NCBI GenBank assembly: GCA_049323935.1
Contig: JBMONN010000007.1
Location: 340 to 64,339, forward strand
Direction: 5' to 3'
DNA from: Thermodesulfobacteriota bacterium
Lineage (GTDB): Bacteria > Desulfobacterota > Desulfobulbia > Desulfobulbales > SURF-16
Length of the DNA stretch: 64,000 nucleotides
Each line of letters starts with the position of its first letter. The stretch's first letter is position 1. Of this stretch, positions 2,933-50,457 are shown one piece after another. Below the pieces are notes generated by a model. It saw nothing but the letters and a program-made list of their open reading frames with translations, did no database searches and was not told where the DNA came from. The translations under genes were made by a program, and so were the position numbers.

Positions 2933-5026
2933 TTACCCCTGCATCTCGGCGAGGGCCGCCTTGCGGCTCAGCCGAATCTTGCCGCGCTGGTCAACATTGA
3001 GCACCTTGACCATGACCTCTTCTCCTTCCTGGAGGATGTCGGTGACCTTTTCAACCCGCCGGTTATCAAGCTCAGAGATGTGAATGAGACCGTCGGTGCC
3101 AGGAAGAATCTCGACAAAAGCACCGAAATCGACGATCTTCTGCACTGTGCCCTTATAAATCTTGCCGATCTCAACCTCGGCGGTGATCTCCCGAACCCGG
3201 TCGAAAACCTTCTGACCGACCACGCCGTCCGGTGCAAAAATCATCACTTTGCCGGAATCCTCGACATCGATCTTGACCCCGTACTCAGCGGTGATGGATT
3301 TGATCATCTTCCCGCCCGGCCCGATCAGATCACGGATCTTTTCCGGATTGATCTCCATGGAAAAGATCTTTGGAGCATGCTCGGGCAGGGTGGCGCGGGG
3401 GGCATCGATCGCCTCCCGCATCTTTTCCAGGATGTGGAGCCGGCCGTTTTTTGCCTGGGCCAGGGCGGTGGTCATGATCTCCCGGGAGATCCCTTCGATC
3501 TTGATATCCATCTGCAGGGCGGTGATGCCGGCCGCGGTGCCGCACACCTTGAAATCCATATCGCCAAGGTGATCCTCATCGCCGAGAATATCGGAGAGGA
3601 CAACAATCTGATCATCGTCCTTGATCAACCCCATGGCCACCCCGGATACCGGCTGCCTGATCGGCACCCCGGCATCCATCAGCGCCAGACAGCCGCCGCA
3701 GACGGTGGCCATCGAGGAGGAACCGTTGGATTCCATGACGTCCGATACCACCCTGATGGTGTAAGGGAAGTCGGCCATGTCCGGCAGGATGGCCTGAATG
3801 GCGCGGGTGGCCAGGGCGCCGTGCCCGATATCGCGGCGGCTCGGACCGCGCAGAAAACGGACCTCGCCGACACAGAATGGCGGAAAGTTGTAATGGAGCA
3901 TGAACGGCAAATTTTCCATCCCCCCCAAGGTTTCCACCCGCTGTTCATCCTCGCCGCTGCCCAGGGTGGCGGTAACGAGGGTCTGGGTCTCCCCCCTGGT
4001 GAACAGGGCCGAGCCGTGGGCCCGCGGCAGAATGGCGACTTCGGAGGTGATCGCCCTGATCTCCTCAAAGCCGCGGCCGTCAATGCGTTTGCGCTCATTG
4101 ACAATCATGGCGCGCATCATATTCTTTTTCAGGTCATGGAGCAGGGCTTTGGCCTCCGCCTGGCCGGTAAAGCCCTCCTCCTTAGCCAGTTCGACAAGAA
4201 CCTCCTCTTCCAGCCCATGGTAGAGGTCGCCACGTTGCATCTTGTCAGCAGTGGTGATGACCCTGGCCATGCCTGCCTGGGCGATGGCGGTTATCTTTTC
4301 CTGCAGCGCATGATCAATCTCCGGCACGGTAACGGCGATTTTGGGCCGGCCGACCTCCCGGCGCAGTTCCTCCTGGATATCGAGCAACGGCTGGATGCCG
4401 GCATGGCCGAAATAGATGCCGGACAGCACCTCCTCCTCAGAGAGATTGTCAGCACCGCCCTCAACCATTACCACGGCATTGCGGGAACCAGCGACGATGA
4501 GATCCATCCGTGATCTGCTCAACTGATCTTTGGTGGGATTGAGCACATACTCGCCATCAATATAACCGACCCTCACCCCGGCAATCGGTCCGAGAAATGG
4601 GATATCCGATACGGTCAGGGCCGCGGAGGCGCCGACCATGGCCATGATGTCCGGGTCATTCTCCTTATCGGCGGACAGGACAGTGGCGATGATCTGCGTC
4701 TCGTTTTTGTAGCCGTCGGCAAACAGAGGTCGCAAAGGTCTGTCAATAAAACGACTCGTCAGGGTCTCCTTTTCCGTCGGCCGCCCGATTTCCCGGCGGA
4801 AATAACTGCCGGGAATCCTGCCCACCGCATAAAAACGTTCCTGATACTCCACGGTCAAGGGGAAAAAATCGATGTCCGGTCGTCCTTCCCGGGCCGCAGT
4901 CGCTGTCACCAGAACCACGCTCTCGCCATAGGAAACAACCACCGAGCCATTTGCCTGTTTTGCCATCTTGCCGGTCTCGATGGCAAACATCCTGCCGCCA
5001 ACTTCCACTTCAACTTTCTTATACAT
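2933..5026 (-). CDS. pnp: Polyribonucleotide nucleotidyltransferase (PNPase)
   Basis: 697 aa. Two RNase PH-like halves followed by KH and S1 regions (GKIYKGTVQKIVDFGAFVEILPGTDGLIHISEL). Canonical position after rpsO. Confidence 0.97.
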   Translation of the reverse strand: MYKKVEVEVGGRMFAIETGKMAKQANGSVVVSYGESVVLVTATAAREGRPDIDFFPLTVEYQERFYAVGRIPGSYFRREIGRPTEKETLTSRFIDRPLRPLFADGYKNETQIIATVLSADKENDPDIMAMVGASAALTVSDIPFLGPIAGVRVGYIDGEYVLNPTKDQLSRSRMDLIVAGSRNAVVMVEGGADNLSEEEVLSGIYFGHAGIQPLLDIQEELRREVGRPKIAVTVPEIDHALQEKITAIAQAGMARVITTADKMQRGDLYHGLEEEVLVELAKEEGFTGQAEAKALLHDLKKNMMRAMIVNERKRIDGRGFEEIRAITSEVAILPRAHGSALFTRGETQTLVTATLGSGEDEQRVETLGGMENLPFMLHYNFPPFCVGEVRFLRGPSRRDIGHGALATRAIQAILPDMADFPYTIRVVSDVMESNGSSSMATVCGGCLALMDAGVPIRQPVSGVAMGLIKDDDQIVVLSDILGDEDHLGDMDFKVCGTAAGITALQMDIKIEGISREIMTTALAQAKNGRLHILEKMREAIDAPRATLPEHAPKIFSMEINPEKIRDLIGPGGKMIKSITAEYGVKIDVEDSGKVMIFAPDGVVGQKVFDRVREITAEVEIGKIYKGTVQKIVDFGAFVEILPGTDGLIHISELDNRRVEKVTDILQEGEEVMVKVLNVDQRGKIRLSRKAALAEMQG

Positions 5027-5066
5027 TTTTCACCTTTGTTCACGGCCGTGCGGCCGCCGGTCAACC

Positions 5067-5130
5067 GGATTACGAACTACGTCTGAGTGGTCATCCAGCC
5101 GGTTGACCACTCAGTCCTAATTCGTAACCC
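5067..5130 (-). promoter_or_regulatory. Long imperfect hairpin in the pnp 5' leader (candidate RNase III/autoregulation stem)
   Basis: Inner perfect 11-bp stem CTGAGTGGTCA (5083-5093) / TGACCACTCAG (5104-5114) with a 10-nt loop. Outer 10-bp stem 5067-5076 / 5121-5130 with one mismatch, separated from the inner stem by a 6x6 internal loop. Sits 41 nt upstream of the pnp start. Confidence 0.45.
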
Positions 5131-5242
5131 GTATGATAATGTGGATCCCGCGCAAAGATGAGCCGACACGTCCTTACCGGCAGGCAGCAGCCCACAGGAT
5201 CAGCATGGCCGGCGATCTTCTTTTCGGCGGGACGGTCAGAAC

Positions 5243-5276
5243 AGAAAAGTCCAGGGAACTCAGGAGAACCCTGGAC
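5243..5276 (-). terminator. Rho-independent terminator candidate downstream of rpsO
   Basis: 8-bp GC-rich stem GTCCAGGG (5249-5256) / CCCTGGAC (5269-5276) with a 12-nt loop, followed on the minus strand by TTTTCT. Confidence 0.55.
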
Positions 5277-5416
5277 TTATCACTTAGTCAGCGCACACTT
5301 TCGGACAACGTACAGCGCCCGTTCGCCGCCCCTCCAGCCCAGCAAACATCTGCAAACAGATGTCAACGCCCGCTGCAGTGAAAGGGGATGTGTGCATCAT
5401 CCGCCACCACAGATCG

Positions 5417-5686
5417 CTACTTTCTGATACCAAGCTCCTTGATGACGTTGCGATACCGGTCAATGCTCTTGCCCTTAAGATAATTGAGCAGCCGTCTGCG
5501 CTGACCAACAAGCTTGAGCAGCCCGCGCCGGGAATGATGATCCTTCTTGTGCGACTGAAAATGTTCGGTCAGGGAGCTGATCCGGGCGCTGAGCAGCGCC
5601 ACCTGAACCTCGGGTGAGCCGGTATCGCCTTGATGGGTGGCAAATTTTTCGATGATTTCTTTTTTCTGGGCTGATTGCATTGTCAC
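5417..5686 (-). CDS. rpsO: 30S ribosomal protein S15
   Basis: 89 aa, [43 protein letters not shown]...; unmistakable S15. Confidence 0.97.
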
Positions 5687-5742
5687 TGCGCGTTCCTCCT
5701 ATTCAAAAATAACTCGGTTTTTATTGCATTATGCCATGAGTT

Positions 5743-6477
5743 TCAGCATCCCGCGACAATTTCATCAACAGGACGCAACGAATCTGTCACCAACCGCAAC
5801 GCATCTTCGCTGTCTCCGTGAAGGCACTCACCGGGAAGAGCGTATTCAACTGAAAAAGGGCCGCTGCGGGTACGTCGCAACTCGGTGAGATGAGCGCCGC
5901 AGCCGAGTTTTGTACCTATATCCGCCGCCAGACTGCGGATATAGGTACCTTTTCCGCAGACAACCCTGACGCGCAACTCCTCTCGCTGCCGGGAGAGGAG
6001 CACGATCTGGTGGATCTGAATCAGACGGGGGGCCTTCGTCACCGCCATGCCCTTGCGTGCATAGTAATACAAGGGTTTCCCTTCGTGTTTGAGGGCGGAA
6101 AAGATCGGAGGCGTCTGCAGTTGCTCGCCGACAAAGGATTGCAGGCAGCGGGTAACCTCCTCGTCGCTCATCTCCCCCACCGCCCGACAGGCGGTCACCG
6201 TACCGGTAAGATCCTGGGTATCGGTTTCGACGCCAAGCCGGAGGGTGGCTTCATATTCCTTTTCACCCCCCATCAGCAACGAAATCCGCCGGGTCGCCTC
6301 GCGACCGGCACAGAGGATCAGCAGCCCGGAGGCAAAGGGATCCAAGGTCCCGGCGTGCCCCACTTTTTTTATCCGCAGAATCCGCTTCACCAGCTGCACC
6401 ATCCGGAAGGAGGTTGGACCAACCGGTTTATCAAGCAGGAGAAAGCCGCTCTGCGGGGGCGTCACCGTCACGTTCAC
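5743..6477 (-). CDS. truB: tRNA pseudouridine(55) synthase
   Basis: 244 aa with a GTG start overlapping the upstream stop (GTGA). Catalytic motif GHAGTLDPFASGLL. Confidence 0.93.
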   Translation of the reverse strand: MNVTVTPPQSGFLLLDKPVGPTSFRMVQLVKRILRIKKVGHAGTLDPFASGLLILCAGREATRRISLLMGGEKEYEATLRLGVETDTQDLTGTVTACRAVGEMSDEEVTRCLQSFVGEQLQTPPIFSALKHEGKPLYYYARKGMAVTKAPRLIQIHQIVLLSRQREELRVRVVCGKGTYIRSLAADIGTKLGCGAHLTELRRTRSGPFSVEYALPGECLHGDSEDALRLVTDSLRPVDEIVAGC

Positions 6478-7442
6478 CGGCGGAGCAGATCGTGCAGGGA
6501 GACCAGCAGCTCCTCACGGACCTGCGCCACATTTTTGCCGGCAACCTTGAAACCCGAGGCGTTGCGGTGCCCCCCCCCACCGAATTTCTGGGCCACCGCT
6601 GCCACGTCATAGTCACCCTTGGAGCGAAGGCTGACGCCGACGACATCCGCTGACTCTTTGATAAAGGCAGCGATTCTCACCGTTTCCAGAGAGCGGGGAT
6701 AATTAATGAACAACTCCGTATCAGCGGCAGTGGTGCCGGTGCGTTCGTAGAGTTCACGGGTTACCTGGATGACAGCCAGCTTCTCATCGTCATAGAGGGT
6801 CAGGGTCGCCAGTACCTCCTGGAGCAACTGGAGACGATTGCGGGTAAAATTGTCAAAAATTTTCCCTGCGATTTCGGCAGGCTTTACCCCCAAGGCCACC
6901 AGAGCACCGGCAATCCGCAGGGTATCGGCCGACGTCGAGGCATACTTAAAAGAGCCGGTGTCGGAAACAATGGCAGAATAGAGACAGTAGGCGGTCTCGT
7001 AGTCGATTTCTGCCCCCAGGCCTCTTATCAGTTCATAGACCATCTCGCCGGTGGATGATTTAGTCGGGTCAACCCAGCGAAAATGACCAAAATTTTTGTG
7101 CCCGGTATGGTGATCAATGACAACAAATGGGTCAACCTGCAACAGGCTATCCTTTGCCTTGCCGAGGCGGAGGTCATCGCCGCAGTCCAGTGCAATGCCG
7201 CAATCAAAACGCCCTAGCGGTGGAATCCCGATATCGAGACGGTCCGAGCCGGGTAAAAACTCGAGAATGTAATGAGCAGGTTCTTCGCTGTAGAGATACA
7301 CCTGCTTTCCCAAGACACGCAGGACATTGCCAAGGGCGAGTTGCGAACCGAGGGCATCGACATCCGGAAAAACGTGGGTGGCAATGAGAACGCTCTTCGC
7401 CGACCGCAGGACGGCTATAATCTCATTCAGTTCCTGCTTCAT
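6474..7442 (-). CDS. nrnA: DHH/DHHA1 phosphoesterase, NrnA-like oligoribonuclease/pAp phosphatase
   Basis: 322 aa. DHH motifs (HVFPDVDALGS, VIDHHTGH) and DHHA1 motif FGGGGHRNASG. Sits between rbfA and truB. Confidence 0.8.
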   Translation of the reverse strand: MKQELNEIIAVLRSAKSVLIATHVFPDVDALGSQLALGNVLRVLGKQVYLYSEEPAHYILEFLPGSDRLDIGIPPLGRFDCGIALDCGDDLRLGKAKDSLLQVDPFVVIDHHTGHKNFGHFRWVDPTKSSTGEMVYELIRGLGAEIDYETAYCLYSAIVSDTGSFKYASTSADTLRIAGALVALGVKPAEIAGKIFDNFTRNRLQLLQEVLATLTLYDDEKLAVIQVTRELYERTGTTAADTELFINYPRSLETVRIAAFIKESADVVGVSLRSKGDYDVAAVAQKFGGGGHRNASGFKVAGKNVAQVREELLVSLHDLLRR

Positions 7443-7833
7443 GCTCGGCGGCTATCTCCTGAAACAGTTTCTGCATCTTTTCATCATGCTCCACCGATCT
7501 GTCCCGGAAAAAAAACAACTCCGGGACATAACGCATCTGCAGCCGACCGGCCAGATGACTGCGGATGAAGCCCTTCGCCCTGGCCAGTCCGATTTTGGCC
7601 GATGCGGTCTGCTCCGCAGCACAGCAGTAGTAAATCTTTGCCTGTTTCAGATCCTTGCTGACAACGACATGGGTGATGCGGACATGACGCAAAGCAGGAT
7701 CCTGTATCGTGTAAAGCAGGAGGACGGCGACCTCATCCCTGATGGCGTCGGCGACCCGGATTGGCCTTCTTTTCGGCCCCGGAACCAGTCCATCTGGAAG
7801 AGTAAACCGTGACTTTTCCTTAAACGCAACCAT
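7423..7833 (-). CDS. rbfA: Ribosome-binding factor A
   Basis: 136 aa with an RbfA-like core (RVADAIRDEVAVLL...VRITHVVVSKDLKQAKIYY). Immediately downstream of infB. Confidence 0.9.
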   Translation of the reverse strand: MVAFKEKSRFTLPDGLVPGPKRRPIRVADAIRDEVAVLLLYTIQDPALRHVRITHVVVSKDLKQAKIYYCCAAEQTASAKIGLARAKGFIRSHLAGRLQMRYVPELFFFRDRSVEHDEKMQKLFQEIAAEHEAGTE

Positions 7834-7854
7834 AAAAAACGCTCCGGCAGCGGA

Positions 7855-10692
7855 TTACAACTGCGCCTCGGTTTTCTCCATAACAAAGGCTTCTAGCCGA
7901 TCACCGACCTTGATGTCATTATAATTTTCAATGCCGGCTCCGCACTCATAACCAGCCTGCACTTCCTTGGCGTCATCCTTAAAGCGCCGCAGAGAGGATA
8001 TCCTGCCGGTGTAGATCACTACACCATCCCGCACCAACCGGACATGGGCATTACGCTCCATTTTCCCAACCGTCACATAACAGCCGGCAATGGTGCCGAT
8101 CTTGGGCACGCTGAAAGTCTCCCGCACCTCGGCCGACCCAATCACCTTTTCTTCGAAGGTCGGTTCCAGCATGCCAACCATCGCCTTTTTAATGTCGTCA
8201 AGGGCGTGGTAAATAACGTCATAGAAGCGAAGATCGACATTTTCCGCCTTGGCCAGGTCCGTCACCTTGGCGCTGGGCCGGACATTGAACCCGATAATGA
8301 GGGCATCCGAAGCGGCGGCAAGCAGCACGTCGGATTCGATGATGGTACCGGTGCCGGAATGAAGAATCTTCACCTTGATTTCTTCGGTGCTCAATTCTTC
8401 CATGGCCTTGGCAAAGGCCTCCAGGGTACCCTGGACATCGGCACGCAACACCACCCGCAACTCTTTGGTTTCACCCTGCTGCATCCGTTCGAACAGGTTG
8501 TCCAGAGAAATCTTGGTGGAGCTGGCTAGTTCGCTTTCCCGACTCTTCAGCTGCCGGTCGTTACTGACGCTGCGGGCCATTTTTTCATCCGGCACCACGA
8601 CAAACTCGTCACCGGCCTTCGGCACGCCACTGAGCCCCTGTATCTCCACCGGCATGGACGGACCGGCTTCCTCGATTTTCCGTCCCTTGTCATCGGTCAG
8701 CGAACGGACTTTGCCGCTGTAGATACCGGCGACAAAATAATCCCCCACCCGCAGAGTTCCGTGCTGGACAAGCACAGTGGCCACCGGCCCGCGTCCCTTG
8801 TGGAGCTGAGCCTCGATCACCCACCCTTTCGCCCGGCGCTTCGGATCGGCCTTGAGCTCAAGAATTTCAGTCTGCAGGAGAATGTTTTCCACCAGCTCGT
8901 CGATGCCGAGCCCCTTTTTTGCCGACGTTTCACAGTAAATCGTCTCGCCACCCCATTCCTCGGCCACCAGACCGAGATCTGCCAGCTCCCGCTTGACCCT
9001 GGCCGGATCAGCGTCCGGCTTGTCGATCTTATTGACCGCGACCAGTATCGGCACCCCTGCCGCCTTGGCATGGTTGATTGCCTCTTTGGTCTGATCCATA
9101 ACGCCGTCATCAGCAGCTACCACAAGAACGACGACGTCCGTCACCTGCGCGCCACGTGAACGCATCTCGGTAAAGGCAGCATGACCTGGGGTGTCGAGAA
9201 AGACCAGATCACCTTTGGCGGAACGAACATAGTGAGCACCGATATGCTGGGTAATACCGCCCGCCTCACCGGCAGCGACATCGGTATTGCGTATTGCGTC
9301 GAGGATGGAGGTCTTGCCATGATCAACATGCCCCATCACGGTAACCACCGGCGGCCGCGGCAACTCCTCCCCGCCGCTCTCAGCCTGATCGAGGTTGATG
9401 ATGGACTGTTCCTCAGTAACCCCCTGCTCGACCTCAAAACCAAAATCACTTGCCACCAGCATGGCTGTATCGACATCCAGGGCCTGATTTACCGTGGCCA
9501 TAATACCGAGCCCGATCAGTTTGGCGATGATCTCGCTGGCCTTTACCCCCATGCGGTGGGCCAGATCACCAACCGAAATGGTTTCGAGCACCTTGATACG
9601 CTTTTTGATCGCCTTGGTCTCGCTGACCGGCTGCAGCTCCCGCTCCCGACGCTTTTTCTTGGAGCCACGTGGCCCGCGCATGACCCGCACCCCGCCGCCG
9701 ATTCTGCCTCCGAGCTGCTCCAGGTCGTCGACATCAACGTCAATGCCGTCCTGACGTTTCGTCCCCTTTTTAGCCCGTGCGACGCCAGGCTCTGGGGCAA
9801 ACTTAACAAACCGTTTTCCCTTTTTACCTTTTTTATTCTTGTCGCCATCGTCGGCCAACTGGCTGTCAATCCCCTCATCGATCAGCGGCATTTGCACTTT
9901 TTTCGGCTTCTCAATTACCTTTTTCGGTCGCTGCCTGTCCTCTTCAACCGGCAGGGGAATTTCTGTCCGTCCGATAATTTTCGCCAGCCCCTTTTTCCGT
10001 TTCTGCAGCGCCACGCCATCATCCTTCCTGGGCTCACGGTCAACGACTTCCGCCTCTCCTCCTGCAACAAGGGGTGGTGCTACTTCGGTTACTGCTGCTG
10101 GCTGTTCCTGGCCGCCGGCTTCGCCCTTTGCTGCCGGTGCTGCCATCTCAACAACCGCCTCACCGACGGCCTCAGTCGAAAACGTTTCAGGGATTTCCTC
10201 AGCAACCGGTGCGGATTTTCTTTCTTCCGCAACCGGCGGTGCGGCTGTTCCTGCCTCTTTTTCATGGGCAACAGCCGCAACAACCTCTTCCTCAGCAGAA
10301 GGCAGTACCGCAACCGGTTGTGTCGGCGGTTGCTCCAGAGCTGCGTTCGCTTCAGGATGCTCGACCTCCGGCTCCTCCTGGGGGGGAAGAAACGACGGTA
10401 CAGCAGATTCTTCCACCGCTTCAGGATGCTCTTCAGAAGTTTCGGGGCTGCTTTCGACAACCGCTTGAGTCCGCCGACGGATGATGGTGGTTCGCCCCTT
10501 CTGCTCGATCCGTTTCTCCTGCACCTCAACCTTTTTGATGCCCAGCCGGCTTCTGATCTCTTCAGCCATATCGTCGTCAATGGAAGAATTATAGGCTCGC
10601 ACGTTATATCCCATTTCGATGAGTTGAGCGGTCAGAATCTTGCTTTCAATACCGGCTTCTTTGGCCAGCTCATATACCCGAATTTTTCCCAT
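7855..10692 (-). CDS. infB: Translation initiation factor IF-2
   Basis: 945 aa. GTPase motifs [18 protein letters not shown]. Long Ala/Glu/Pro-rich N-terminal region. Confidence 0.97.
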
Positions 10693-41722: not shown

Positions 41723-43519
41723 ATGAAGCCCCGCCTTGCTCTCCTCTTTATGCTGCTCTGCGTCCTTTTTCTCGTGATCCGGGAAAATCTGACCAAACGG
41801 CCCGAGCGTCTCCACCAGACCAGCGCCGGCCAGGTGGAGATGTGCCTGGAGTGCCACAAAACCGAACAACTCGATCCCGCCCATGACCGGTTGGTGATGG
41901 GCTGCTCTCCCTGCCATCTCGGTGACGCCCTGGCCATTGACAAGGACAGGGCGCACACAGCCATGGTCAAAAACCCAGGCGACCTGCGGGTGGTGGAAAA
42001 AACCTGCGGGGTGGAGGGCTGCCATGCGCCGGACGTGAAAAAGGTCAAAAATTCGCTGATGGCCACCAACCGTGGCATCCTTGCCACCCTCCTCTACTAC
42101 TGGGGCGAGGCGCCGGACCAGAACGGCGATTTTTCGGTGGAACAGCTGCTGGCCAGCAACCAGACCTCCCTGGCCATCGACTACTACCGAAAACTTTGCG
42201 CCACCTGCCACCTCTGGAAACAGAAAGGCGACCTGCCCGGTTTCTTCGGGGAAAAGGGCGGCGGCTGCACGGCCTGCCACTTTGTCAAGGACGGCAACCT
42301 CACTGCCGAGCAGGCGAAAAAGGTACATCCGCGCATCGTCAAACAGGTGCCGGTGAGCAACTGTGTCCGCTGCCACAACCGCAGTGGTCGCATCGGCATC
42401 TCCTATACCGGCGTCTATGAGTCGGAAAACTACGGCACCCCCTACACCAAGGGCGGCATGTCGGAAAAACGGCTGCCCGGCGACCGCTATTATCTCAGCC
42501 TGCCCGCTGATATCCACCACCAGAAAGGCATGGCCTGTATCGACTGCCACACGAGAAACGAGATCATGGGCGACGGCACCCGTTACGCCCATTACGAAAA
42601 CCAGCTTGAAATCACCTGCAAAACCTGTCATGTTCCGGCTGGCGAGACGACGAACGAACCTGGCTTGACCCGCAAAGGCGATAAACTAACAAACATCGTT
42701 GGCGACGAGGCGGGCTGGCAGCTGACCAACAAGCTCACAGCCGACAAAAAGCACCCCATCCGACCGCCCAAGGCCGGGATCTGCGACTTTGCCGGCCACA
42801 AGCGGGTCGGCTGCGAGGCCTGCCATTCCGGCTGGGTGCCGCAGTGTTACGGCTGCCACGTCAAGCAGGACAAAAGGGAAACCGATCTCGACAAACTGAC
42901 CTTGACCGAAACGCCGGGCTGGTGGATTGAGGGTCGCTCCTCTCTCCGGTACGAACGGCCGATGCTGGCCGTCTGGGCTGACGAGGTGGTGATCGTCACC
43001 CCCGGCTGCCAGGACATCGTCTCGGTGGTCAACGCCCAAGGCAAAGCGGAGCAACACTTCAACAGCCTGACCATGGCCGCCATCAACCCACACACCACCC
43101 AGACCAGGGGACGAAGCTGCGCTGACTGCCACCAGTCGCCGAAAACCATTGGTCTCGGCGAGGGCACCATCTGGCGGGAAGCGGGCGAGTGGCGTTTCAA
43201 TGCCGCGGCCCAAGGGCTTGTCACCGCGGCAGGCGTCACCCCGCCGCTTGACGCCTATGTCGCCATTGACGGGACCCCCTTACAGAAATCGGCCCGGCCC
43301 GATCTGCGGCCCTTCAACAAAGAGGAACTGGCCCGCATCCTCCGTGTCGGCCTCTGCATCGACTGCCACAAGGAGTACTCGGACCCGGCTTACCGCACCT
43401 ATACGCCGGCAACAACATGCCCGGTCTATCGGGAAGAGAAAGATGGTGGGCCGGCACCCCAGAAGAATCCCGCCATTACCGCCACGGAAAAAAAACCGGC
43501 GCTGGAGAAAAAACCATGA
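41723..43519 (+). CDS. Multiheme c-type cytochrome (11 CxxCH plus 1 CxxxxCH) with an N-terminal signal/anchor
   Basis: 598 aa. Hydrophobic N-terminus MKPRLALLFMLLCVLFLVI. Heme motifs in order: CLECH, CSPCH, CGVEGCH, CATCH, CTACH, CVRCH, CIDCH, CKTCH, CEACH, CYGCH, CADCH, CIDCH. Starts 1 nt after the nadE stop, and its stop overlaps the hisD ATG. Confidence 0.85.
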   Translation: MKPRLALLFMLLCVLFLVIRENLTKRPERLHQTSAGQVEMCLECHKTEQLDPAHDRLVMGCSPCHLGDALAIDKDRAHTAMVKNPGDLRVVEKTCGVEGCHAPDVKKVKNSLMATNRGILATLLYYWGEAPDQNGDFSVEQLLASNQTSLAIDYYRKLCATCHLWKQKGDLPGFFGEKGGGCTACHFVKDGNLTAEQAKKVHPRIVKQVPVSNCVRCHNRSGRIGISYTGVYESENYGTPYTKGGMSEKRLPGDRYYLSLPADIHHQKGMACIDCHTRNEIMGDGTRYAHYENQLEITCKTCHVPAGETTNEPGLTRKGDKLTNIVGDEAGWQLTNKLTADKKHPIRPPKAGICDFAGHKRVGCEACHSGWVPQCYGCHVKQDKRETDLDKLTLTETPGWWIEGRSSLRYERPMLAVWADEVVIVTPGCQDIVSVVNAQGKAEQHFNSLTMAAINPHTTQTRGRSCADCHQSPKTIGLGEGTIWREAGEWRFNAAAQGLVTAAGVTPPLDAYVAIDGTPLQKSARPDLRPFNKEELARILRVGLCIDCHKEYSDPAYRTYTPATTCPVYREEKDGGPAPQKNPAITATEKKPALEKKP

Positions 43520-44829
43520 TTATCACCCCCTATTCCACTGCATCGAAACAGGGCAAGGAACTGCTGGCCCGACTGGCCAACCGTTTTCAACTGGCCGACA
43601 CTTCCTGCCGCCAGGCGGTGGCGGATATTCTCACCGCGATCCGCCAGGGCGGCGATCAGGCCCTGCTCGATTACACCCGCCGCTTTGACGCACCGGACAT
43701 GACCAGTGACCAGCTTCGGGTCTCCGAGGCCGAACTGGTCGAGGCCTATTCACAGGTCGATGCAGACTTGCTGGCCAGCATCCGCCTGGCCAAAAAGAGA
43801 ATCGACGATTTTCATCAACGGGAGATGGAACATTCCTGGTTCATGACCCGGGAGGACGGCACCATCACCGGCCGCCTGGTCCGCCCGGTGGAGGCGGCCG
43901 GTCTCTATGTGCCCGGCGGCCGCGGCGGCACCACCCCCCTCGTCTCCTCGGTGCTGATGAACGGGATCCCGGCCGCCATCGCCGGGGTCGAGCAAAGGGT
44001 GATGGTCACCCCACCCAATGCACAAGGCAAGGTCAATCCGGCGCTCCTGGTGGCGGCCCAGGAAACCGGTATCCGCGAGATCTACAAGGTTGGCTCCGCC
44101 TGGGCCATCGCCGCCCTGGCCTTTGGCACCGATACCATTCCGGCGGTTGATGTCATTGTCGGACCTGGCAACCAGTATGTGGCCGAGGCAAAGCGCCAGG
44201 TGGCGGGCAGGGTGCGGATCGATATGCTTGCCGGCCCGAGCGAGGTGCTGATCATCGCCGATCAGACCGCCACACCGGCCTTCATCGCCGCCGACATGCT
44301 GGCCCAGGCCGAACACGACCCACAGGCCCTCGCCCTGCTCATCACCACCAGCGCCGATATTGCCGACCGGACAGTGGCGGAACTGGAGCGTCAACTGCCT
44401 CTCCTTGACCGACAAGATATCGCCCGCACCTCCCTTAATGACCGCGGCGCCATTCTGATCTGCGATTCGCTTGCCGAGGCGCTGACCATGGCCAACAGGA
44501 TCGCCATCGAACATCTGGAGCTGATGGTGGCCGATCCCTTTGCCTGCCTGCCGACCATCCGGCACGCCGGCGCCATCTTCCTCGGCGATTACTCGCCGGA
44601 GGCATGCGGCGACTATGTCGCCGGTCCCAACCATGTCCTGCCCACCATGGGCACGGCGCGCATCTCCTCGGCGCTCGGAGTGGAGACCTTCCTGAAGAAG
44701 AGCAGCATCATCTCCTGTTCGAGGCGCGCCTTTGCCGCCGACGCTCCCCACATCGTCAACCTGGCCCGGCTGGAAGGATTGACCGCCCATGCCCGCTCGG
44801 TGAGCGTGCGTCTCGAACAAAAAAAATGA
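43516..44829 (+). CDS. hisD: Histidinol dehydrogenase
   Basis: The track ORF starts at 43417. The ATG at 43516 (MIITPYSTASKQ...) is the ATGA-coupled start. HisD signatures are present (GPGNQYVAEAKR, AQAEHD). Confidence 0.93.
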   Translation: MIITPYSTASKQGKELLARLANRFQLADTSCRQAVADILTAIRQGGDQALLDYTRRFDAPDMTSDQLRVSEAELVEAYSQVDADLLASIRLAKKRIDDFHQREMEHSWFMTREDGTITGRLVRPVEAAGLYVPGGRGGTTPLVSSVLMNGIPAAIAGVEQRVMVTPPNAQGKVNPALLVAAQETGIREIYKVGSAWAIAALAFGTDTIPAVDVIVGPGNQYVAEAKRQVAGRVRIDMLAGPSEVLIIADQTATPAFIAADMLAQAEHDPQALALLITTSADIADRTVAELERQLPLLDRQDIARTSLNDRGAILICDSLAEALTMANRIAIEHLELMVADPFACLPTIRHAGAIFLGDYSPEACGDYVAGPNHVLPTMGTARISSALGVETFLKKSSIISCSRRAFAADAPHIVNLARLEGLTAHARSVSVRLEQKK

Positions 44830-45485
44830 CGGGCCCTCAGAGCAGTGACCTGTTCCGGCAGGGGTGCGCCGCCCTCGGCCTCTCCCTGGAAACGCCGGCC
44901 ATCGCACGACTCGACCGTTACCTCAGCGAATTGCGGCGCTGGAACACCAAAATGAATCTGGTTGCCGATGCCCCGCTGCAGGAGATGATTGACTGCCACT
45001 TTCTCGATTCTCTCACCCTGCTGCCTCATCTCGACCCGGGCAGTCACCCCGTTTTACTCGATGTCGGCACCGGCGCCGGCTTTCCAGGTCTGGCGCTGAA
45101 ATGCGCCGCACCCTCCCTCGCCCTGACCCTGGTCGAACCGCGGGAGAAACGGGTGATTTTTCTCCGCCACATCGTCCGCCAGCTCGACCTTGCCGGGGTA
45201 GAGATCGTTCCCCGCCGCCTGGAGAAAAAAAACACGGAAAATATCCTCTATCCGCTCATCACCAGCCGGGCGGTTGCCAATGTCGCCGAATTTCTTGATC
45301 TGGTCGCCGCCTGGTGTCCCAGCAGCGGCACCGTCATCTGCATGAAAGGTCCCCGGGCTGACGAGGAGATTGCCCAATGGCAGACCACTGCCTCATCGAG
45401 TCCTTTTTTCCTGCGAAACAGCATTTCTCTGGGCCTGCCATTCAGCGGCTCCAGACGCACCCTGCTGTTTTTTACAAAAATTTAA
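44826..45485 (+). CDS. rsmG: 16S rRNA (guanine527-N7)-methyltransferase
   Basis: The track ORF starts at 44604. The ATG at 44826 overlaps the hisD stop (ATGA). WNTKMNLV and the SAM-binding DVGTGAGFPGL motif. Confidence 0.85.
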   Translation: MTGPQSSDLFRQGCAALGLSLETPAIARLDRYLSELRRWNTKMNLVADAPLQEMIDCHFLDSLTLLPHLDPGSHPVLLDVGTGAGFPGLALKCAAPSLALTLVEPREKRVIFLRHIVRQLDLAGVEIVPRRLEKKNTENILYPLITSRAVANVAEFLDLVAAWCPSSGTVICMKGPRADEEIAQWQTTASSSPFFLRNSISLGLPFSGSRRTLLFFTKI

Positions 45486-45526
45486 CCAGCCGGTAACAAT
45501 TATTTCATCGCACCCGGAAAGAAATC

Positions 45527-45555
45527 TTGCATGGTTGGTCATGTTTTTATAGCAT
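45527..45555 (+). promoter_or_regulatory. Candidate promoter for the yeeE operon
   Basis: TTGCAT (45527-45532), a 17-nt spacer, then TAGCAT (45550-45555). Followed by GC hairpin GCCGGGG-TAAG-CCCCGGC at 45567-45584 in the leader. Confidence 0.3.
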
Positions 45556-45633: not shown

Positions 45634-46776
45634 ATGATTACCGGCAACCTCTTTTTTCTTTATGCGGCAAATTTCATTCTCGGCCTGATGGCGGGATTCT
45701 TCATGCACCGCTCGGATTACTGCGTTGCCGGCATGTTCCGTGATATCTTTCTGTTCCGCCGCGCCACCATGCTCCGTTTTCTTTTTCTTCAGATCATCGT
45801 CACCATGGTGTTTTTCGAACTGGCCAGGAGAGCCGGATTGCTGTCTCTCTACCCTTTCCCGTTGCTCGGACCGCCAACCCTGACCGCCTTGGCCGGCGGA
45901 TTTCTCTTTGGTATCGGCATGGTGCTGGCTGGGGGCTGTGTCGTCGGCACCCTCTACCGAATCGGCGCCGGCAACGTCCTGAGCATAGTGGCATTGGTCG
46001 GCATCCTGGCCGGCAGCGCCCTCTACGCCGAAATGCACCCCTGGTGGTCCCGCCTGGCCAAAAACGCGATCCTTACCCGTGATGCCATTACCCTGCCGCA
46101 ACTGCTTGGTCTCTCGCCCACCATTCTCATCGGCTTGATCACGGTGCCGGCCATTCTGCTCTTTCTCCACTGGCGCCGCCGCAACCTGTGGCGCCGGTCT
46201 TCAGTCGCAGACGGCTATATCCAGCCAGGGCAGACCGCTCTGGTCCTGGCTGGCATTAGTCTCCTCTCCTATCTACTGAACGGCATGCCCATCGGAGTGA
46301 CCACGACCTACGCCAAAATGGCCGCCATGATCGAGCATATCATCGCGCCGGATCATGTCGATCACTCCGCCTATTTTTCCGCCCGCTCCCTCGATATCAT
46401 TCATCCGGACAGCGGGGCACACCTTGCCGGTAGCGGCGGTCCGTACCTCGACACCATCTGGGCCATCCAGTTTCCGGTCATTGCCGGCATCGTCCTCGGC
46501 AGCCTGCTGTCGGCACTGCATCTTCGCGAACTCACCCTGCGCACCCGCCTGCCGAGTCGCCAATACGCCATGGTTCTGGCTGGCGGCCTGCTGCTCGGGC
46601 TGGCCTCCCGCATGGCCTCCGGCTGCAACATCTGGCATCTGATGGGCGGATTGCCCATTCTTGCCCTGCAGAGCCTCCTTTTCCTGGCCGGACTCCTGCC
46701 CGGCTGCTGGCTCGGCAGCTCGATTCTCGCCCGTGCCCTTTCCCAGCGACCCCTTTCCTCCATGAGTGCGCCATGA
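45634..46776 (+). CDS. yeeE: YeeE/YedE family sulfur-compound (thiosulfate-type) transporter
   Basis: 380-aa polytopic protein with family-typical conserved cysteines in re-entrant segments (DYCVAGMFRD, GGCVVGTLYR, SGCNIWHLMGG). Confidence 0.8.
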   Translation: MITGNLFFLYAANFILGLMAGFFMHRSDYCVAGMFRDIFLFRRATMLRFLFLQIIVTMVFFELARRAGLLSLYPFPLLGPPTLTALAGGFLFGIGMVLAGGCVVGTLYRIGAGNVLSIVALVGILAGSALYAEMHPWWSRLAKNAILTRDAITLPQLLGLSPTILIGLITVPAILLFLHWRRRNLWRRSSVADGYIQPGQTALVLAGISLLSYLLNGMPIGVTTTYAKMAAMIEHIIAPDHVDHSAYFSARSLDIIHPDSGAHLAGSGGPYLDTIWAIQFPVIAGIVLGSLLSALHLRELTLRTRLPSRQYAMVLAGGLLLGLASRMASGCNIWHLMGGLPILALQSLLFLAGLLPGCWLGSSILARALSQRPLSSMSAP

Positions 46777-47045
46777 GCGAAAAACAGCAGCACATCATTG
46801 CCATCGACATGCGGGGCCAGGTGTGTCCGGCCTGCCTGCTGGTGGCCATGGACAGTATGAACAAAAACCGCAATGCCCTGCAAAACGGTTCAGCCAGACT
46901 CTGCATCACAACCGACAATCGGGAGGCAATCACCACCATCCCCTCCACGGCCCGCAACATGGGCTATTCGACCAGAGTGATGAAAAAAGCGAGCTTCTAC
47001 GAAATCTGCATCGGCATCATTTCGCCCGAAGGCGTGGAGCCATGA
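46773..47045 (+). CDS. TusA/YeeD-like sulfurtransferase
   Basis: 90 aa. IAIDMRGQVCPACLL corresponds to the TusA D-x-x-G-x-x-CP active-site region. ATGA overlaps on both sides. Confidence 0.7.
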   Translation: MSEKQQHIIAIDMRGQVCPACLLVAMDSMNKNRNALQNGSARLCITTDNREAITTIPSTARNMGYSTRVMKKASFYEICIGIISPEGVEP

Positions 47046-49261
47046 TCATGGATGACCTGCTCCATACAGCCCGCACCTTTCTTGCGAACCCTGATTCCCC
47101 GCCTCCTTCGTTTTCCGGGGCGCCCGAGCTTGTTCCGCTCGCCGAACTCCTTTTCACCCTCATTACCGAAAACCACGCCCTGAAAAAGGATCACAGCCAA
47201 GCCATCGACTATCTGCGCCGCAAGATCGACCAGCTGCTGGTGGTCATCGGCACCATTCCCCTGCGGCCTGAGGAGCTGGACAACGCATCGCTCATCAGCA
47301 TCGATCCCATCGGCATCATTGCTGAATCCTTTACCCAGATTCTTGCTCATCTGCGCCAGACCAACGAAAAACTCGAGGTTGCCATGGAGGAGATCCAGGC
47401 GATTTTCGAAGCGGTCGGCGGCGGCATTTTGGTCCTTGACACCAACAAACAGATCCTCTCTTACAATCACAAACTGCAGGAAATGTTCGGCCGCGAGGGC
47501 GAAACCCTGCTGGGCAAGACCTGCAAAGATCTGATCTGCAGGGGAACCGCCCCAAGGGGCTGCGTTTTCGACGCCATGATGAAATCGGGTCGTCCCACCG
47601 CCATCAGTCACTGTGCCGGCACAGCCCACCATTACAACATCACCGCCACCCCGGTGAAGGATCGCAACGGCTTAATCATCCGGGCGGTGTTGCTCTATAC
47701 CGATATCTCCGAACTGATGGCGGCCAAAGATGATCTGGCCGATGAGAAGGAACGACTTTCTCTCACCCTTGAAAGCATTGCCGAAGGGGTCGTGGCCACC
47801 GACACCAACGGCTCTGTCGTGCTGATGAACCGGGTGGCGGAGACACTCTCCGGTTGGTCCAGCATAGACGCTTTGGGCCGGCAGATCTGCGAGATTTTCC
47901 CGCTGCGTCCGGATCAGGACAATCCTTCCTGCTTCGATCTCTTTGCCGACGTCCTGCGGGAGGGCAGTCAGGCGGCTCGAATCGCCAATGCCCGCCTCTG
48001 TGACCGGACCGGCACCAGCCGCCTTATCACGGTCAGCGTCGCCCCGATCCGTCGCGGCAATCAGCTGGATCACACCGGCGCCATCTTCGTTTTCCGCGAT
48101 ATCACCCATGAAAAGGCACTGGAAGAGGAACTGTTCAAGGCCTCAAAAATCGAATCCCTTGGCGTTCTTGCCGGCGGCATTGCCCATGATTTCAACAATC
48201 TGCTGACCTCGATCCTCGGCAATATCGCCCTGGCCAAAAGACATCTCCAACCGGACAACATGATCTACCAGTTTCTCAACGATTCCGAACGGGCCTCCTC
48301 CCGGGCCAGGAGTCTGACCCACCAATTACTGACCTTTGCCAAAGGCGGGGCGCCGATCCAGACCCTCACTTCAAGCAGCAGACTGATCAGCGAGGCCGCC
48401 CGCTTTGCCGCCACCGGCTCGCGGATCAAATGCACCTTCGCCCTGGCCGAGGATCTCTGGAATGTCACGGTTGATGAAGGGCAGATCGGCCAGGTCATCC
48501 AGAATCTGGTCATCAATGCCGACCAGGCCATGCCGGCTGGCGGCATTATCTCCATCACGGGCGAAAATATCATCGTCGATGCCGCGGACAATGTTCCGCT
48601 GCAACCGGGGCGGCACATCAAAATCGGTATCCATGACCGGGGCGCCGGCATCAACAGCAACTATCTCGACAAGATCTTCGACCCATACTTCACCACCAAG
48701 GAGGCCGGCCACGGTCTCGGCCTGGCCATCAGCTATTCAATCGTCAAAAAACATCAGGGCCACATCCATGCCGAACCGCGCCCGGGCGGCGGCACAAGCT
48801 TTTTTGTCTACCTGCCTGCCGCAGCCGACACCGTGGCGGACAATCGCGAGCAACCGCGCCGGACTTCCGCCGGTCAGGGAAGAATTCTGGTCATGGATGA
48901 TGAGGAGATGGTCCGGGATGTGGCCGTCCAGATGCTGCAGATGCTGGGCTACCAGGCCGACGGCTGCGCGGACGGCAAAGAGGCCATTGCCTGCTATCAG
49001 ACAGCGGAACACACCGGCCGCCCCTACGACGCGGTGATCATGGACCTGACCATTCCGGGCGGAATGGGCGGCAAAGATGCCCTGGCTGCATTGCAAAAGA
49101 TCACACCGACAGTCAGGGCTATTGTCTCAAGCGGCTATGCCAATGACCCGATCATGGCCGACTTCCGGCGTTACGGATTTTCCGCCGTGGTGCCCAAACC
49201 ATACGACGTTGATCAGCTCGGCACCGTTATCAGCCGGGTTCTTGAACAAGAAGGGGGATAA
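47042..49261 (+). CDS. Cytoplasmic hybrid sensor histidine kinase (two PAS, HisKA, HATPase, receiver)
   Basis: The track ORF starts at 46766. The ATG at 47042 overlaps the tusA-like stop. H-box GIAHDFNNLLTSILG, ATPase G-boxes DRGAGI/GHGLGLA, and a C-terminal receiver ILVMDDE...VIMDLTIPGGMGG. No TM segment seen. Confidence 0.88.
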   Translation: MIMDDLLHTARTFLANPDSPPPSFSGAPELVPLAELLFTLITENHALKKDHSQAIDYLRRKIDQLLVVIGTIPLRPEELDNASLISIDPIGIIAESFTQILAHLRQTNEKLEVAMEEIQAIFEAVGGGILVLDTNKQILSYNHKLQEMFGREGETLLGKTCKDLICRGTAPRGCVFDAMMKSGRPTAISHCAGTAHHYNITATPVKDRNGLIIRAVLLYTDISELMAAKDDLADEKERLSLTLESIAEGVVATDTNGSVVLMNRVAETLSGWSSIDALGRQICEIFPLRPDQDNPSCFDLFADVLREGSQAARIANARLCDRTGTSRLITVSVAPIRRGNQLDHTGAIFVFRDITHEKALEEELFKASKIESLGVLAGGIAHDFNNLLTSILGNIALAKRHLQPDNMIYQFLNDSERASSRARSLTHQLLTFAKGGAPIQTLTSSSRLISEAARFAATGSRIKCTFALAEDLWNVTVDEGQIGQVIQNLVINADQAMPAGGIISITGENIIVDAADNVPLQPGRHIKIGIHDRGAGINSNYLDKIFDPYFTTKEAGHGLGLAISYSIVKKHQGHIHAEPRPGGGTSFFVYLPAAADTVADNREQPRRTSAGQGRILVMDDEEMVRDVAVQMLQMLGYQADGCADGKEAIACYQTAEHTGRPYDAVIMDLTIPGGMGGKDALAALQKITPTVRAIVSSGYANDPIMADFRRYGFSAVVPKPYDVDQLGTVISRVLEQEGG

Positions 49262-49275: not shown

Positions 49276-49671
49276 TCAGGAGGCATTTTCCCGCATCTCC
49301 TCGAAATATTTCCGGTCCGTGCCAAGGATATGGTTTTTCAGCCAGCTGACGAGAAATTGTAAGACATCAAGGGTGATGTCGGCCTTTCCCTGCAGATAGT
49401 CCTTTTGCAGTTGCAGGGTTTTCCTGACAAAAGAAAAATGCTCGCGGCGGTGCTCCTCAAAGTGCGGATGGGCTTGTAAATACCCTTCCTCACACTTGAA
49501 GTGAAAATCGATGTAGTTAACCATCTCTTCGAGCACCTCGGGCAACCCGGCCTTATCCGGACCGCCGAAATTCTCGATAAAACGGTTAAGCAGGGCAAAG
49601 AGTTGCTGATGCTGCCGATCGACCTCCTCCACCCCGACATTGTATTTTTCTTCCCATTTGACCAGATCCAT
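49276..49671 (-). CDS. Bacteriohemerythrin
   Basis: The track ORF starts at 49707. The ATG at 49671 (MDLVKWEEKYNVGVEEVDRQHQQLFALLN), with GGGAG upstream, matches the canonical hemerythrin N-terminus. His/Glu/Asp iron ligands are in H-x-x-x-E and HFxxEE contexts. Confidence 0.8.
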   Translation of the reverse strand: MDLVKWEEKYNVGVEEVDRQHQQLFALLNRFIENFGGPDKAGLPEVLEEMVNYIDFHFKCEEGYLQAHPHFEEHRREHFSFVRKTLQLQKDYLQGKADITLDVLQFLVSWLKNHILGTDRKYFEEMRENAS

Positions 49672-49734
49672 CCCATGCTCCCACTTGCCCGATCCCGCCA
49701 TCGACACATGTCGGTGGCAACCGGTTGTTCATGA

Positions 49735-50457
49735 TTATTTTTTCCCCTCTGCCTCCAGGGCGGCAAGATAGGGGCCAAACAGCTCGTCATAGTCCCGCAG
49801 GCCCTTTTTGAGGATCAGGGGAAAGGCGGAAAGATCGTTGTCGTTGATAACCAGATTGGCGCTGTTGGCGAGGGCCTCGAGGTTGTACAGGGTGTGAAAC
49901 TGCGGCCCGACCAGCACATAAAAGATGGAGCGGCGGCTGGTCATGGGCATTGTCTGCATATGGGCATGCACGGTGGAAGATACCAGCTCTCCCTCGAAAG
50001 CTGCATGCAGCACCACCGCGGCGACGGTGGTGAAGCGCATCCGCTCCAGGGCGTCCTCCTCGCTTTTCGGCAGGATCGGCTTGTACCCCATATCATCGAA
50101 AAACTGGGCCATATCGATGCGGATCTGCTCATCCTCCATCAGAATGATGACCTGCGGCACATCCTCGATGACCTCGCCGGTGCCGAGATCCCCGCGCTCG
50201 AGCCAACCGAGATCGGGCGGCCCTGGAGGCGGAGGCGTCCTGCCGGGCGCCGTGCTCCGGCGAAGAGGTGGAGTGACGAGTTGCCCCGTCGTCTCGGTCT
50301 CTTCCTGTCTCCGCACCTCGATCGGTTTCTGACAGTGAGGGCAGTTGAACTTCAACGCCCGGCCCGGCGGCAGGGCGGCAAGGGCATGTTCAATCTTCTG
50401 CCGCTGCGCCTCGTTGAGCCCCAGCTCCCGGCCACAGTTGCTGCATACGGATATCAT
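49735..50457 (-). CDS. Zinc-ribbon protein with a C-terminal receiver-like (apparently non-phosphorylatable) domain
   Basis: 240 aa. N-terminal CSNCG...CPHC ribbon, a Pro-rich linker, then QVIILMEDEQ...YKPILPKSEEDALERMR...VAAVVLHAAF, which reads like CheY beta1-beta3 with His where the acceptor Asp is expected. By eye only. Confidence 0.6.
   Translation of the reverse strand: MISVCSNCGRELGLNEAQRQKIEHALAALPPGRALKFNCPHCQKPIEVRRQEETETTGQLVTPPLRRSTAPGRTPPPPGPPDLGWLERGDLGTGEVIEDVPQVIILMEDEQIRIDMAQFFDDMGYKPILPKSEEDALERMRFTTVAAVVLHAAFEGELVSSTVHAHMQTMPMTSRRSIFYVLVGPQFHTLYNLEALANSANLVINDNDLSAFPLILKKGLRDYDELFGPYLAALEAEGKK

Follow-up and report, generated by a model that had tools for sequence, protein, structure and literature searches.

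Some histidine kinases sense their stimulus together with a transporter, as DcuS does with DctA/DcuB and BceS with BceAB. A passage of a recent study describes the bacterial perception of external inorganic sulfur compounds as poorly understood, and the system analysed there, SoxT1B-TusA-sHdrR/SoxR of Hyphomicrobium denitrificans (Li et al. 2024), relies on a YeeE-family transporter with three conserved cysteines that is dedicated to signalling and not to bulk uptake, TusA being proposed to hand sulfane sulfur from the transporter to a cytoplasmic Cys-based sensor (PMC11582611). In Bacillus licheniformis NreB, a [2Fe-2S] cluster is bound by Cys63, Cys66 and Cys78, located 20, 23 and 35 residues after β2 and directly before α2, and this cluster with its labile fourth sulfur ligand is the sulfide-sensing element (PMC13478379); the gene cluster of NreB holds TusA- and DsrE-like genes (PMC9918477). 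YedE phylogeny recognises further, unstudied paralogue groups (PMC13293266, PMC12998232), and a recent proteomics paper noted in Dissulfuribacter a second YeeE that does not belong to the yedE-tusA-dsrE (YTD) cluster. Here, a stretch of 64,000 nucleotides (nt) from a Thermodesulfobacteriota bacterium (assembly GCA_049323935.1, contig JBMONN010000007.1, positions 340 to 64,339; hereafter the window) was analysed, in which a YeeE-like transporter and a TusA-like carrier are encoded together with a soluble hybrid histidine kinase. The linkage of importer, carrier and sensor is not due to chance, this gene triad being a conserved, portable unit, and the sensors share an unannotated N-terminal domain, termed N-dom; together, this suggests a previously undescribed route from sulfur supply to kinase or cyclic di-GMP (c-di-GMP) signalling.

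The three genes are those recognised in a preliminary description of the locus, all on the + strand: yeeE-like (45634-46776; 380 amino acids (aa); Sulf_transp, PF04143), tusA-like (46773-47045; 90 aa; PF01206; motif GQVCPAC) and the hybrid sensor kinase gene (47042-49261; 739 aa), assigned on its Pfam domains, the absence of transmembrane segments and orthologues in the same triad. Both junctions are the 4-nt ATGA overlaps claimed earlier, ccATGAgcg between yeeE and tusA (46773-46776) and ccATGAtcATG between tusA and the kinase gene (47042-47045), and neither a + strand promoter-like site nor a terminator-like site was flagged at the internal junctions. The obligate co-translation read from these overlaps was an overstatement: in relatives, tusA and the sensor gene overlap (-1 to -14 nt) at about one-third of loci and are separated by a short gap in the rest, figures that are approximate because start codons in relatives were chosen heuristically. 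No natural TusA-sensor fusion was found among the loci examined; an apparent fusion in L024 proved to be an artefact of open reading frame (ORF) extension, with a stop codon separating the genes, and the odd ORF ends in L021, L034 and L076 had the same origin.

Linkage to yeeE and tusA in relatives had been set beforehand as the test of the earlier proposal, and it was assessed in both directions. In the forward direction, a YeeE-clade alignment was run against GTDB species represented by a single genome each, and the 80 best loci were analysed by tblastn with the window proteins and by ORF extraction; yeeE, the tusA-like gene and an N-dom sensor gene occurred in that order and on one strand in 78/78 evaluable loci, the two other contigs ending early. 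In the reverse direction, a metagenome scan seeded with N-dom alone gave 80 loci, 74 of them evaluable (at least 450 nt upstream), and a tusA-like gene stood beside the sensor gene in 72/74, directly upstream in 70; L159 and L160 carry yeeE-tusA just downstream of the sensor, and yeeE precedes tusA in 66 of the 72 reverse loci evaluable for it. Clustering of the flanking ORFs revealed no other gene common to more than 6/80 loci, and the triad therefore moves as a portable unit through unrelated contexts. The functional coupling of importer, carrier and cytoplasmic sensor, which underlay the earlier proposal that the kinase monitors imported sulfur, is well supported because this linkage holds across phyla; how the monitoring would work is a matter of the conditional model discussed below.

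Triad hosts are Desulfobulbales, to which the nearest relatives of the window belong, Desulfurivibrionaceae and Desulfocapsaceae; Geobacterales and Desulfuromonadales; and Nitrospirota, Chromatiaceae, Thioalkalivibrio, Thiobacillus, Sulfuricella, Magnetovibrio and one Myxococcota metagenome-assembled genome (MAG). Almost all are sulfur oxidisers, reducers or disproportionators, and cultured representatives include Thioalkalivibrio sulfidiphilus ALJ17, T. denitrificans ALJD, Desulfurivibrio sp. D14AmB, Geomobilimonas luticola and Geobacter sp. OR-1. The negative control, P0241, whose catalytic core is similar but which has a receiver at its N-terminus in place of N-dom, is not near yeeE, and a Nitrospirota orthologue with N-dom (P0177) adjoins yeeE. 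At two loci (L146, 2238-7205, and L149), the place of yeeE is taken by genes for a haem-binding EB_dh protein (PF09459) and a membrane protein with DUF2231, and the tusA-like gene and an N-dom-PAS-GGDEF-EAL sensor are kept; the TusA-sensor pair thus outlasts replacement of YeeE, which points to TusA as the direct partner.

The preliminary description had missed that the first ~115 residues of the kinase, ahead of the PAS domains, form a distinct conserved domain. N-dom (47144-47395, +; residues ~35-118) is helical and unannotated and is the hallmark of the module: it is above all this portion of the first ~115 residues that the sensors share, with 40-60% identity across phyla and the motif Y-[IL]-R-x-K-[IV]-[DN]-Q-L-L-x-V-x-G-T-x-P-L-R-P-E-E-L-D-D-x-T-L-I-x-L-D-P-I-G-I-I-x-x-S-F-x-Q-[IV]-L-x-H-L-x-x-T-N. 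Sixteen positions are invariant in the kinase orthologues (Y57, R59, K61, Q64, L66, G70, T71, E77, L79, L84, D88, P89, F97, L101, T107 and N108). Scans with the isolated domain, relaxed to E≤10 for Pfam and E≤1 for NCBIfam, returned no family, and no sequence match was found in the PDB. An exhaustive HMMER search recovered N-dom in only 128 clusters of 1.84 billion representatives, the still greater rarity suggested by a word-indexed search (2 proteins of 21 candidates) being a limitation of the index. The domain lies at the extreme N-terminus in all clusters but one; in that one, P0346 (518 aa, metagenome), it occupies residues ~207-278, between a GAF-like region and the HisKA coiled coil, an arrangement which suggests that N-dom is able to act as an in-line transmission element.

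In an AlphaFold2 model built from 46 sequences (predicted local distance difference test score 89.7), N-dom has two long helices, 31-68 and 89-119, joined by a conserved acidic loop of 12 residues followed by a short helix, and the second long helix enters the first PAS domain, PAS1. Foldseek gave no significant neighbour, the best being HAMP-DHp fusions and the poly-HAMP of Aer2 (E of at least 1.2), and the model of N-dom with PAS1 aligns with the HAMP-PAS model of WalK over 232 columns. Identity with HAMP is not supported, with no Pfam HAMP match at E≤10 and hhalign probabilities of 14.6% for Af1503 and 8.8% for an alignment of six HAMP sequences, in which only the AS2-like DPIGIIA-SF stretch was aligned; the modelled fold would best be described as HAMP-like in topology and not as a demonstrable HAMP domain. 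N-dom can be the sole input domain, as seen in L053 and L084. The sensor of L053 (8199-9629) has N-dom fused straight to HisKA-HATPase-REC without a PAS domain, and in L084 a 97-aa gene for N-dom alone stands between tusA and one for PAS-GGDEF-EAL. As side observations, the L053 connector reads LMECPTL instead of V-x-G-T-x-P-L, placing a Cys in an otherwise Cys-free domain, and the L084 genes (4638-10068) run in the order Sulf_transp, TusA, stand-alone N-dom, PAS-GGDEF-EAL and sigma-54 activator, a layout that is either a natural split of the sensor or a long-read assembly indel.

The remainder of the window kinase matches PAS, PAS, HisKA, HATPase_c and Response_reg, all above the Pfam cutoffs: PAS1 (47405-47716, +; PAS_4/PAS_9, residues 122-225), PAS2 (47753-48103, +; PF00989, residues 238-354), the HisKA and HATPase_c core (48167-48823, +; PF00512, residues 376-436, and PF02518, residues 478-594; H-box GGIAHDFNN) and a C-terminal receiver (48884-49228, +; PF00072, residues 615-729) with VMDDEE, IMDLTIPG, SSGY and PKPY. 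Since HisKA with its phospho-His, HATPase_c and a receiver with its phospho-Asp can all be read in the translation, the protein is a hybrid histidine kinase; no segment of transmembrane grade was found, the maximum Kyte-Doolittle 19-residue mean being 1.38, so that the architecture and solubility first proposed are borne out. Orthologues 94-67% identical occupy the same triad. A hybrid kinase is the partner in the window, as had been described, but it is not the conserved partner: the output is HisKA-HATPase-REC in sensors of Thermodesulfobacteriota and Nitrospirota, GGDEF-EAL in those of Gammaproteobacteria and some other hosts and HisKA_2/HWE in that of L078, and sensors of some Geobacterales are PAS-only. 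The constant sensor element is N-dom, usually together with a Cys-bearing PAS domain, and the output domain is interchangeable. The earlier statement that no cognate DNA-binding regulator is encoded nearby also stands, as no regulator gene occurs within ~6 kb on either side of the triad and tblastn detected no other receiver domain in the window; across loci, there is no conserved Hpt or response-regulator partner, a single-domain receiver being present in 6/80 only. In the Nitrospirota loci L082 and L083 (3194-9315), a RuBisCO-large-family gene lies upstream of the triad and a convergent gene for a Response_reg-PilZ protein (the PilZ match being weak) lies downstream, the latter being a possible lineage-specific output partner.

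PAS1 bears three cysteines, C161, C166 and C174 (47522-47563, +), spaced C-x4-C-x7-C. The full C-x4-C-x(6-10)-C triad is present in 55/73 aligned sensors, all of them kinase-fused or PAS-only, and a few kinase-type sensors (L032, L053) are without it. It is missing as a complete set from every GGDEF-EAL sensor; these carry 0-2 cysteines at the site, usually one or two, e.g. ELFCDPSGPSAEC or QVCPCDEH. In the AlphaFold2 model, the cysteines fall in the helical region between β2 and the Fα helix, 20, 25 and 33 residues after β2, with the third directly before Fα. The structural neighbours of PAS1 are the PAS domains of LOV proteins, CitA and NifL; no sequence similarity to solved iron-sulfur (Fe-S) PAS domains was detected, the best PDB match being the PAS domain of ThkA.

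The carrier matches PF01206 (38.1 bits vs 28.6), with YedF as its best NCBIfam match (E=3.8e-7; 29.7 vs a cutoff of 79). Its active-site residue, Cys18 (46824-46826, +), aligns with the Cys of the solved TusA-like chains 3hz7 and 1je3, and Cys18-Pro19 is invariant in 79/79 orthologues, within the clade motif D-[IM]-R-G-Q-x-C-P-[SA]-[TCS]-L-L. The canonical C-P-x-P is absent: aligned TusA-like chains in the PDB read CPIP and CPYP, the window carrier reads C-P-A-C, and among the 79 carriers the fourth position is T in 38, C in 29, S in 9 and A in 3, never P. Cys18 of the VCPAC active site proposed earlier was therefore upheld, and its CxxC-like reading was not; because the second Cys, less common than T, is kept in only 29/79, a CxxC redox motif was rejected as a trait of the carrier family. 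When cysteines were compared between partners (79 TusA-like and 73 sensor sequences, loci L001-L080), the second carrier Cys (C-P-x-C) was found in 15/18 triads with an incomplete PAS1 Cys triad vs 11/55 with a full one, a pattern that may reflect compensation by one partner for thiols missing from the other or may simply follow lineage.

The transporter matches PF04143 over the entire model (positions 1-310 of 310; 181.2 bits vs a cutoff of 27; E=4.5e-53). The three Cys-containing signature segments reported earlier were recovered, C30, C102 and C331 being invariant in 23 homologues and aligning to the RICF, GGCasG and GGCNIgH motifs of Spirochaeta thermophila YeeE (StYeeE; 6leo), whose C22, C91 and C293 line the channel. 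Scores fall below the cutoffs of the TsuA equivalogs (NF052577, 124.7 vs 400; NF041049, 80.7 vs 645) and of the selenium YedE/FdhT models (NF033796, 107.2 vs 350; TIGR04112, 53.6 vs 200), and the protein is a member of a distinct clade of the YeeE/YedE family, probably corresponding to one of the unstudied YedE paralogue groups. Hydropathy analysis gave 11 partly overlapping stretches, i.e. ~9 distinct hydrophobic segments. In comparison with StYeeE, ~35 extra residues are present within residues 223-282, between the central helix and the second half; the insertion is His-rich in the window, and its HP-SGA, GG-GP and D motifs are conserved clade-wide. The positive-inside rule would place the RRRNLWRR segment ahead of the insertion in the cytoplasm, and hence the insertion loop probably in the periplasm; the insertion might set substrate specificity.

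Taken as a whole, these features are best accommodated by a model, to which we assign a probability of roughly 55%, in which the triad is one self-contained sulfur-sensing module whose loaded carrier acts on the sensor by way of N-dom and the PAS cysteines. Reduced sulfur, as thiosulfate or as sulfane sulfur/polysulfide, would enter the cell through the YeeE-clade transporter, and Cys18 of the carrier would accept it on the cytoplasmic side of YeeE, in the manner of YeeD. Docking of the loaded carrier on N-dom would follow and may change the conformation of N-dom, or drive the helical bundle directly; alternatively, the carrier may hand sulfane sulfur to the PAS1 cysteines, forming a persulfide or polysulfide bridge or providing the labile ligand of a three-Cys Fe-S cluster in PAS1. 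The downstream enzyme would be switched as a result, here by autophosphorylation of the hybrid kinase with an Hpt or response-regulator partner encoded elsewhere, and in Gammaproteobacteria by c-di-GMP synthesis or hydrolysis, so that the cell would report sulfur flux through a dedicated importer and not bulk cytoplasmic sulfur. TusA-to-N-dom is favoured as the core contact because the TusA-sensor pair survives YeeE replacement, PAS-less sensors exist and N-dom has no conserved cysteine. A bolder version, which can be offered only tentatively, makes N-dom the dedicated receptor for persulfide-loaded carriers of the TusA family, which would act as diffusible protein messengers; in kinase-type sensors, the carrier would bring a PAS1 three-Cys Fe-S cluster its labile sulfur ligand.

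Several points weigh against this model. Each of its mechanistic steps is drawn from gene order and conservation, and gene adjacency fits equally well a sensor that regulates the importer. The transporter falls under the cutoffs of both the thiosulfate (TsuA) and the selenium (YedE/FdhT) models, neither of which thus assigns it a substrate. N-dom is devoid of conserved cysteines and therefore cannot itself be persulfidated, and the PAS1 Cys triad is incomplete in 18/73 sensors and absent in L053, so that PAS1 Cys chemistry is not a universal step. Linkage also has its exceptions: an N-dom protein (L099) has neither yeeE nor tusA in the available flanks, another (L152) has neither in the available 1.4 kb upstream, and a yeeE 56% identical to that of the window, in Desulfurivibrio alkaliphilus AHT2, has neither tusA nor a sensor gene within 5 kb. 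On balance, confidence is moderate to high that the triad is a functional sensing unit and modest for the specific mechanism. Around the lone AHT2 gene (L165; CP001940.1, 3041563-3052675), yeeE is followed by genes for a DUF432 protein and an MscS-type channel; Desulfurivibrio sp. D14AmB (L030) has the full triad.

The placement of the PAS1 cysteines, which parallels that of the NreB ligands, and the presence of the full Cys triad in three-quarters of the orthologues, every one kinase-fused or PAS-only, raise the alternative that PAS1 directly detects sulfide or persulfide by means of a three-Cys Fe-S cluster like that of NreB, with YeeE and TusA supplying or maintaining the ligand or cluster, or raising local sulfur, and with N-dom as a dimerisation and transmission bundle. 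NreB is itself a proven sulfide-sensing PAS kinase with TusA- and DsrE-like genes in its cluster (PMC9918477), and the best, albeit non-significant, structural neighbours of N-dom are HAMP transmission modules. This explanation is nevertheless doubtful, as PAS1 shares no sequence similarity with solved Fe-S PAS domains, the linkage to yeeE-tusA persists in the GGDEF-EAL branch and in L053, in which the Cys triad is incomplete and absent, respectively, and N-dom, with its 16 invariant residues, its acidic PLRPEELDD loop and its restriction to this gene context, shows much more conservation than a linker requires.

The direction of signalling could also be reversed, the sensor detecting another cue, for example redox state, O2 or a metabolite, through its PAS domains and then controlling the importer, either post-translationally, with N-dom binding TusA or YeeE to gate uptake, or by autoregulation of the operon, for which a distant response regulator or c-di-GMP effector would be used. 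Sensing in the cytoplasm is a generic role of PAS domains, those of LOV proteins, CitA and NifL being the structural neighbours of PAS1, the kinase has a second PAS domain, and conserved adjacency is symmetrical and gives no direction. Still, the outputs are swapped freely while N-dom, TusA and YeeE stay constant, which is the usual signature of a conserved input and therefore speaks against a conserved output; the PAS-less L053 sensor and the N-dom-only protein of L084 have no other input domain; and a c-di-GMP enzyme and a kinase would need unrelated routes to the same transporter. A reversed arrow is for these reasons considered unlikely.

It is improbable that the triad represents a YedE/YedF-like selenium importer and carrier with a selenium-responsive sensor. 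Although the transporter matches the YedE/FdhT model at E=1e-30 and YedF is the best NCBIfam match of the carrier, both scores are far under the curated cutoffs and a slightly higher score is obtained with the TsuA model (124.7 bits); among solved structures the closest homologue is YeeE/TsuA, a thiosulfate transporter, the hosts are characteristically sulfur-cycling, and no selenium-utilisation gene is found among the annotated genes flanking the triad (~6 kb either side). That the kinase merely happens to sit downstream of a yeeE-tusA uptake operon, as might be imagined from the great abundance of hybrid PAS kinases (7872 homologues at E≤1e-20), is effectively refuted by the forward and reverse linkage across phyla in unrelated neighbourhoods and by the occurrence of N-dom essentially only in this context.

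Upstream of yeeE, a candidate operon promoter, TTGCAT-17 nt-TAGCAT (45527-45555, +), lies 79 nt 5' of the ATG; the block is kept in the intergenic region of a relative (L002, YeeE 62% identical) and is on that basis proposed as the promoter of the triad operon. A consensus promoter scan chose TTTACA-18-AACAAT (45471-45500), a site not kept in L002, and a riboswitch was ruled out, with no Rfam match at E≤1 in the 148-nt upstream region. The neighbouring genes are unrelated to the triad, with housekeeping or pilus functions. Upstream are NAD synthase, a multihaem cytochrome, hisD and rsmG; the cytochrome has 598 aa and an MtrC/MtrF-like domain, and ORFs on the + strand run at 41723-43519, 43417-44829 and 44604-45485. 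The longest hisD and rsmG ORFs overlap their upstream neighbours by ~100 and 226 nt, and their true starts are probably later because the Pfam matches begin at residues 58 and 101. The downstream neighbours, on the opposite strand, are a bacteriohemerythrin gene, a gene for a 240-aa protein, pilT and mltA. The bacteriohemerythrin gene (49276-49707, -; NF033749, 117 bits) converges on the kinase gene with 14 bp between the stop codons; it was rejected as a member of the module, being probably outside it because it is missing at this position in the close relative L002. The 240-aa protein (49735-50457, -), without a Pfam family, has a double CxxC motif resembling a zinc ribbon at its N-terminus, then a linker rich in Pro and, at the C-terminus, a stretch with a weak receiver look and no phospho-Asp (VVLHAAF). 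It was rejected as the cognate regulator, since it has only this weak receiver-like stretch and its gene travels with pilT, not with the triad, being syntenic with pilT in L002, L017 and L022; it bears no similarity to the REC-PilZ neighbour of the Nitrospirota triads and may be a pilus-motor accessory. The window is 98.3% identical across 12.7 kb to JBMONO010000031.1, from a Thermodesulfobacteriota MAG.

If the proposed module operates as outlined, flux through a YeeE importer would be coupled to phosphorelays in Thermodesulfobacteriota and Nitrospirota and to c-di-GMP in sulfur-oxidising Gammaproteobacteria, i.e. to the two largest bacterial signalling systems, and the triad would extend to both a principle worked out so far only for a YeeE-like transporter coupled to repressors of the ArsR type. 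It would also establish a new family of input domains and explain in general terms how reduced sulfur outside the cell is sensed by sulfur-cycling bacteria, in hosts that drive sedimentary sulfur cycling (Desulfobulbales and relatives of cable bacteria, Thermodesulfovibrionia-type Nitrospirota, Geobacterales, Chromatiaceae, Thioalkalivibrio and Thiobacillus). As a compact unannotated input domain, N-dom can be modelled and searched, and the natural domain-swap variants allow the logic of input and output to be tested.

No paper describing the triad was returned by literature searches that combined YeeE, YedE or TusA with kinase, PAS or diguanylate cyclase/GGDEF, but the triad can be compared with several known systems. 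YeeE/YeeD (TsuA/TsuB; PDB 6leo, 8j4c) shares with it the same two families, the gene order and the Cys motifs and is the best solved homologue, whereas the triad transporter scores under the TsuA cutoffs, carries the insertion and is longer (~380 aa, TsuA and SoxT being given as 330-350 aa), C-P-[SA]-[TCS] takes the place of C-P-x-P in the carrier, and a sensor gene is attached. The YTD cluster (yedE-tusA-dsrE/DsrEFH type II) of Desulfobulbales and Nitrospirota has host lineages and its first two gene families in common with the triad (PMC13293266, PMC12998232), but its third partner is a DsrE-type sulfur transferase feeding dissimilatory metabolism, while that of the triad is a signalling protein. 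NreB resembles the triad sensor as a soluble PAS histidine kinase with three conserved cysteines at PAS positions that may be equivalent, a positional parallel only, as the spacing is C-x2-C-x11-C in NreB and C-x4-C-x7-C in PAS1 of the window kinase and no sequence homology is detectable; NreB moreover lacks N-dom and a YeeE partner and pairs with NreC, whereas no response regulator adjoins the triad. In DcuS and BceS, likewise, a kinase reads flux through a dedicated transporter and not the free ligand, but these are membrane proteins touching the transporter directly, whereas the triad sensor is soluble and the small carrier is the likely go-between. In the SoxT1B system, the receiver of the signal is an ArsR-type DNA-binding repressor encoded in sox/shdr clusters, as opposed to a multidomain sensor in which N-dom leads to phosphorelay or c-di-GMP output; no ArsR regulator or sox/shdr gene flanks the triad in the window, and no such cluster is conserved across the 80 loci. 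SoxT1B-TusA-sHdrR/SoxR is thus the nearest functional precedent and NreB the nearest sensor precedent, and in gene order YeeE/YeeD and the YTD cluster are the nearest relatives. None of SoxT1B, NreB, YeeE/YeeD and YTD contains N-dom or links YeeE/TusA to a kinase or a c-di-GMP enzyme, and the triad is in this comparison an instance of transporter- and carrier-coupled sulfur sensing, a known principle, with a new input domain.

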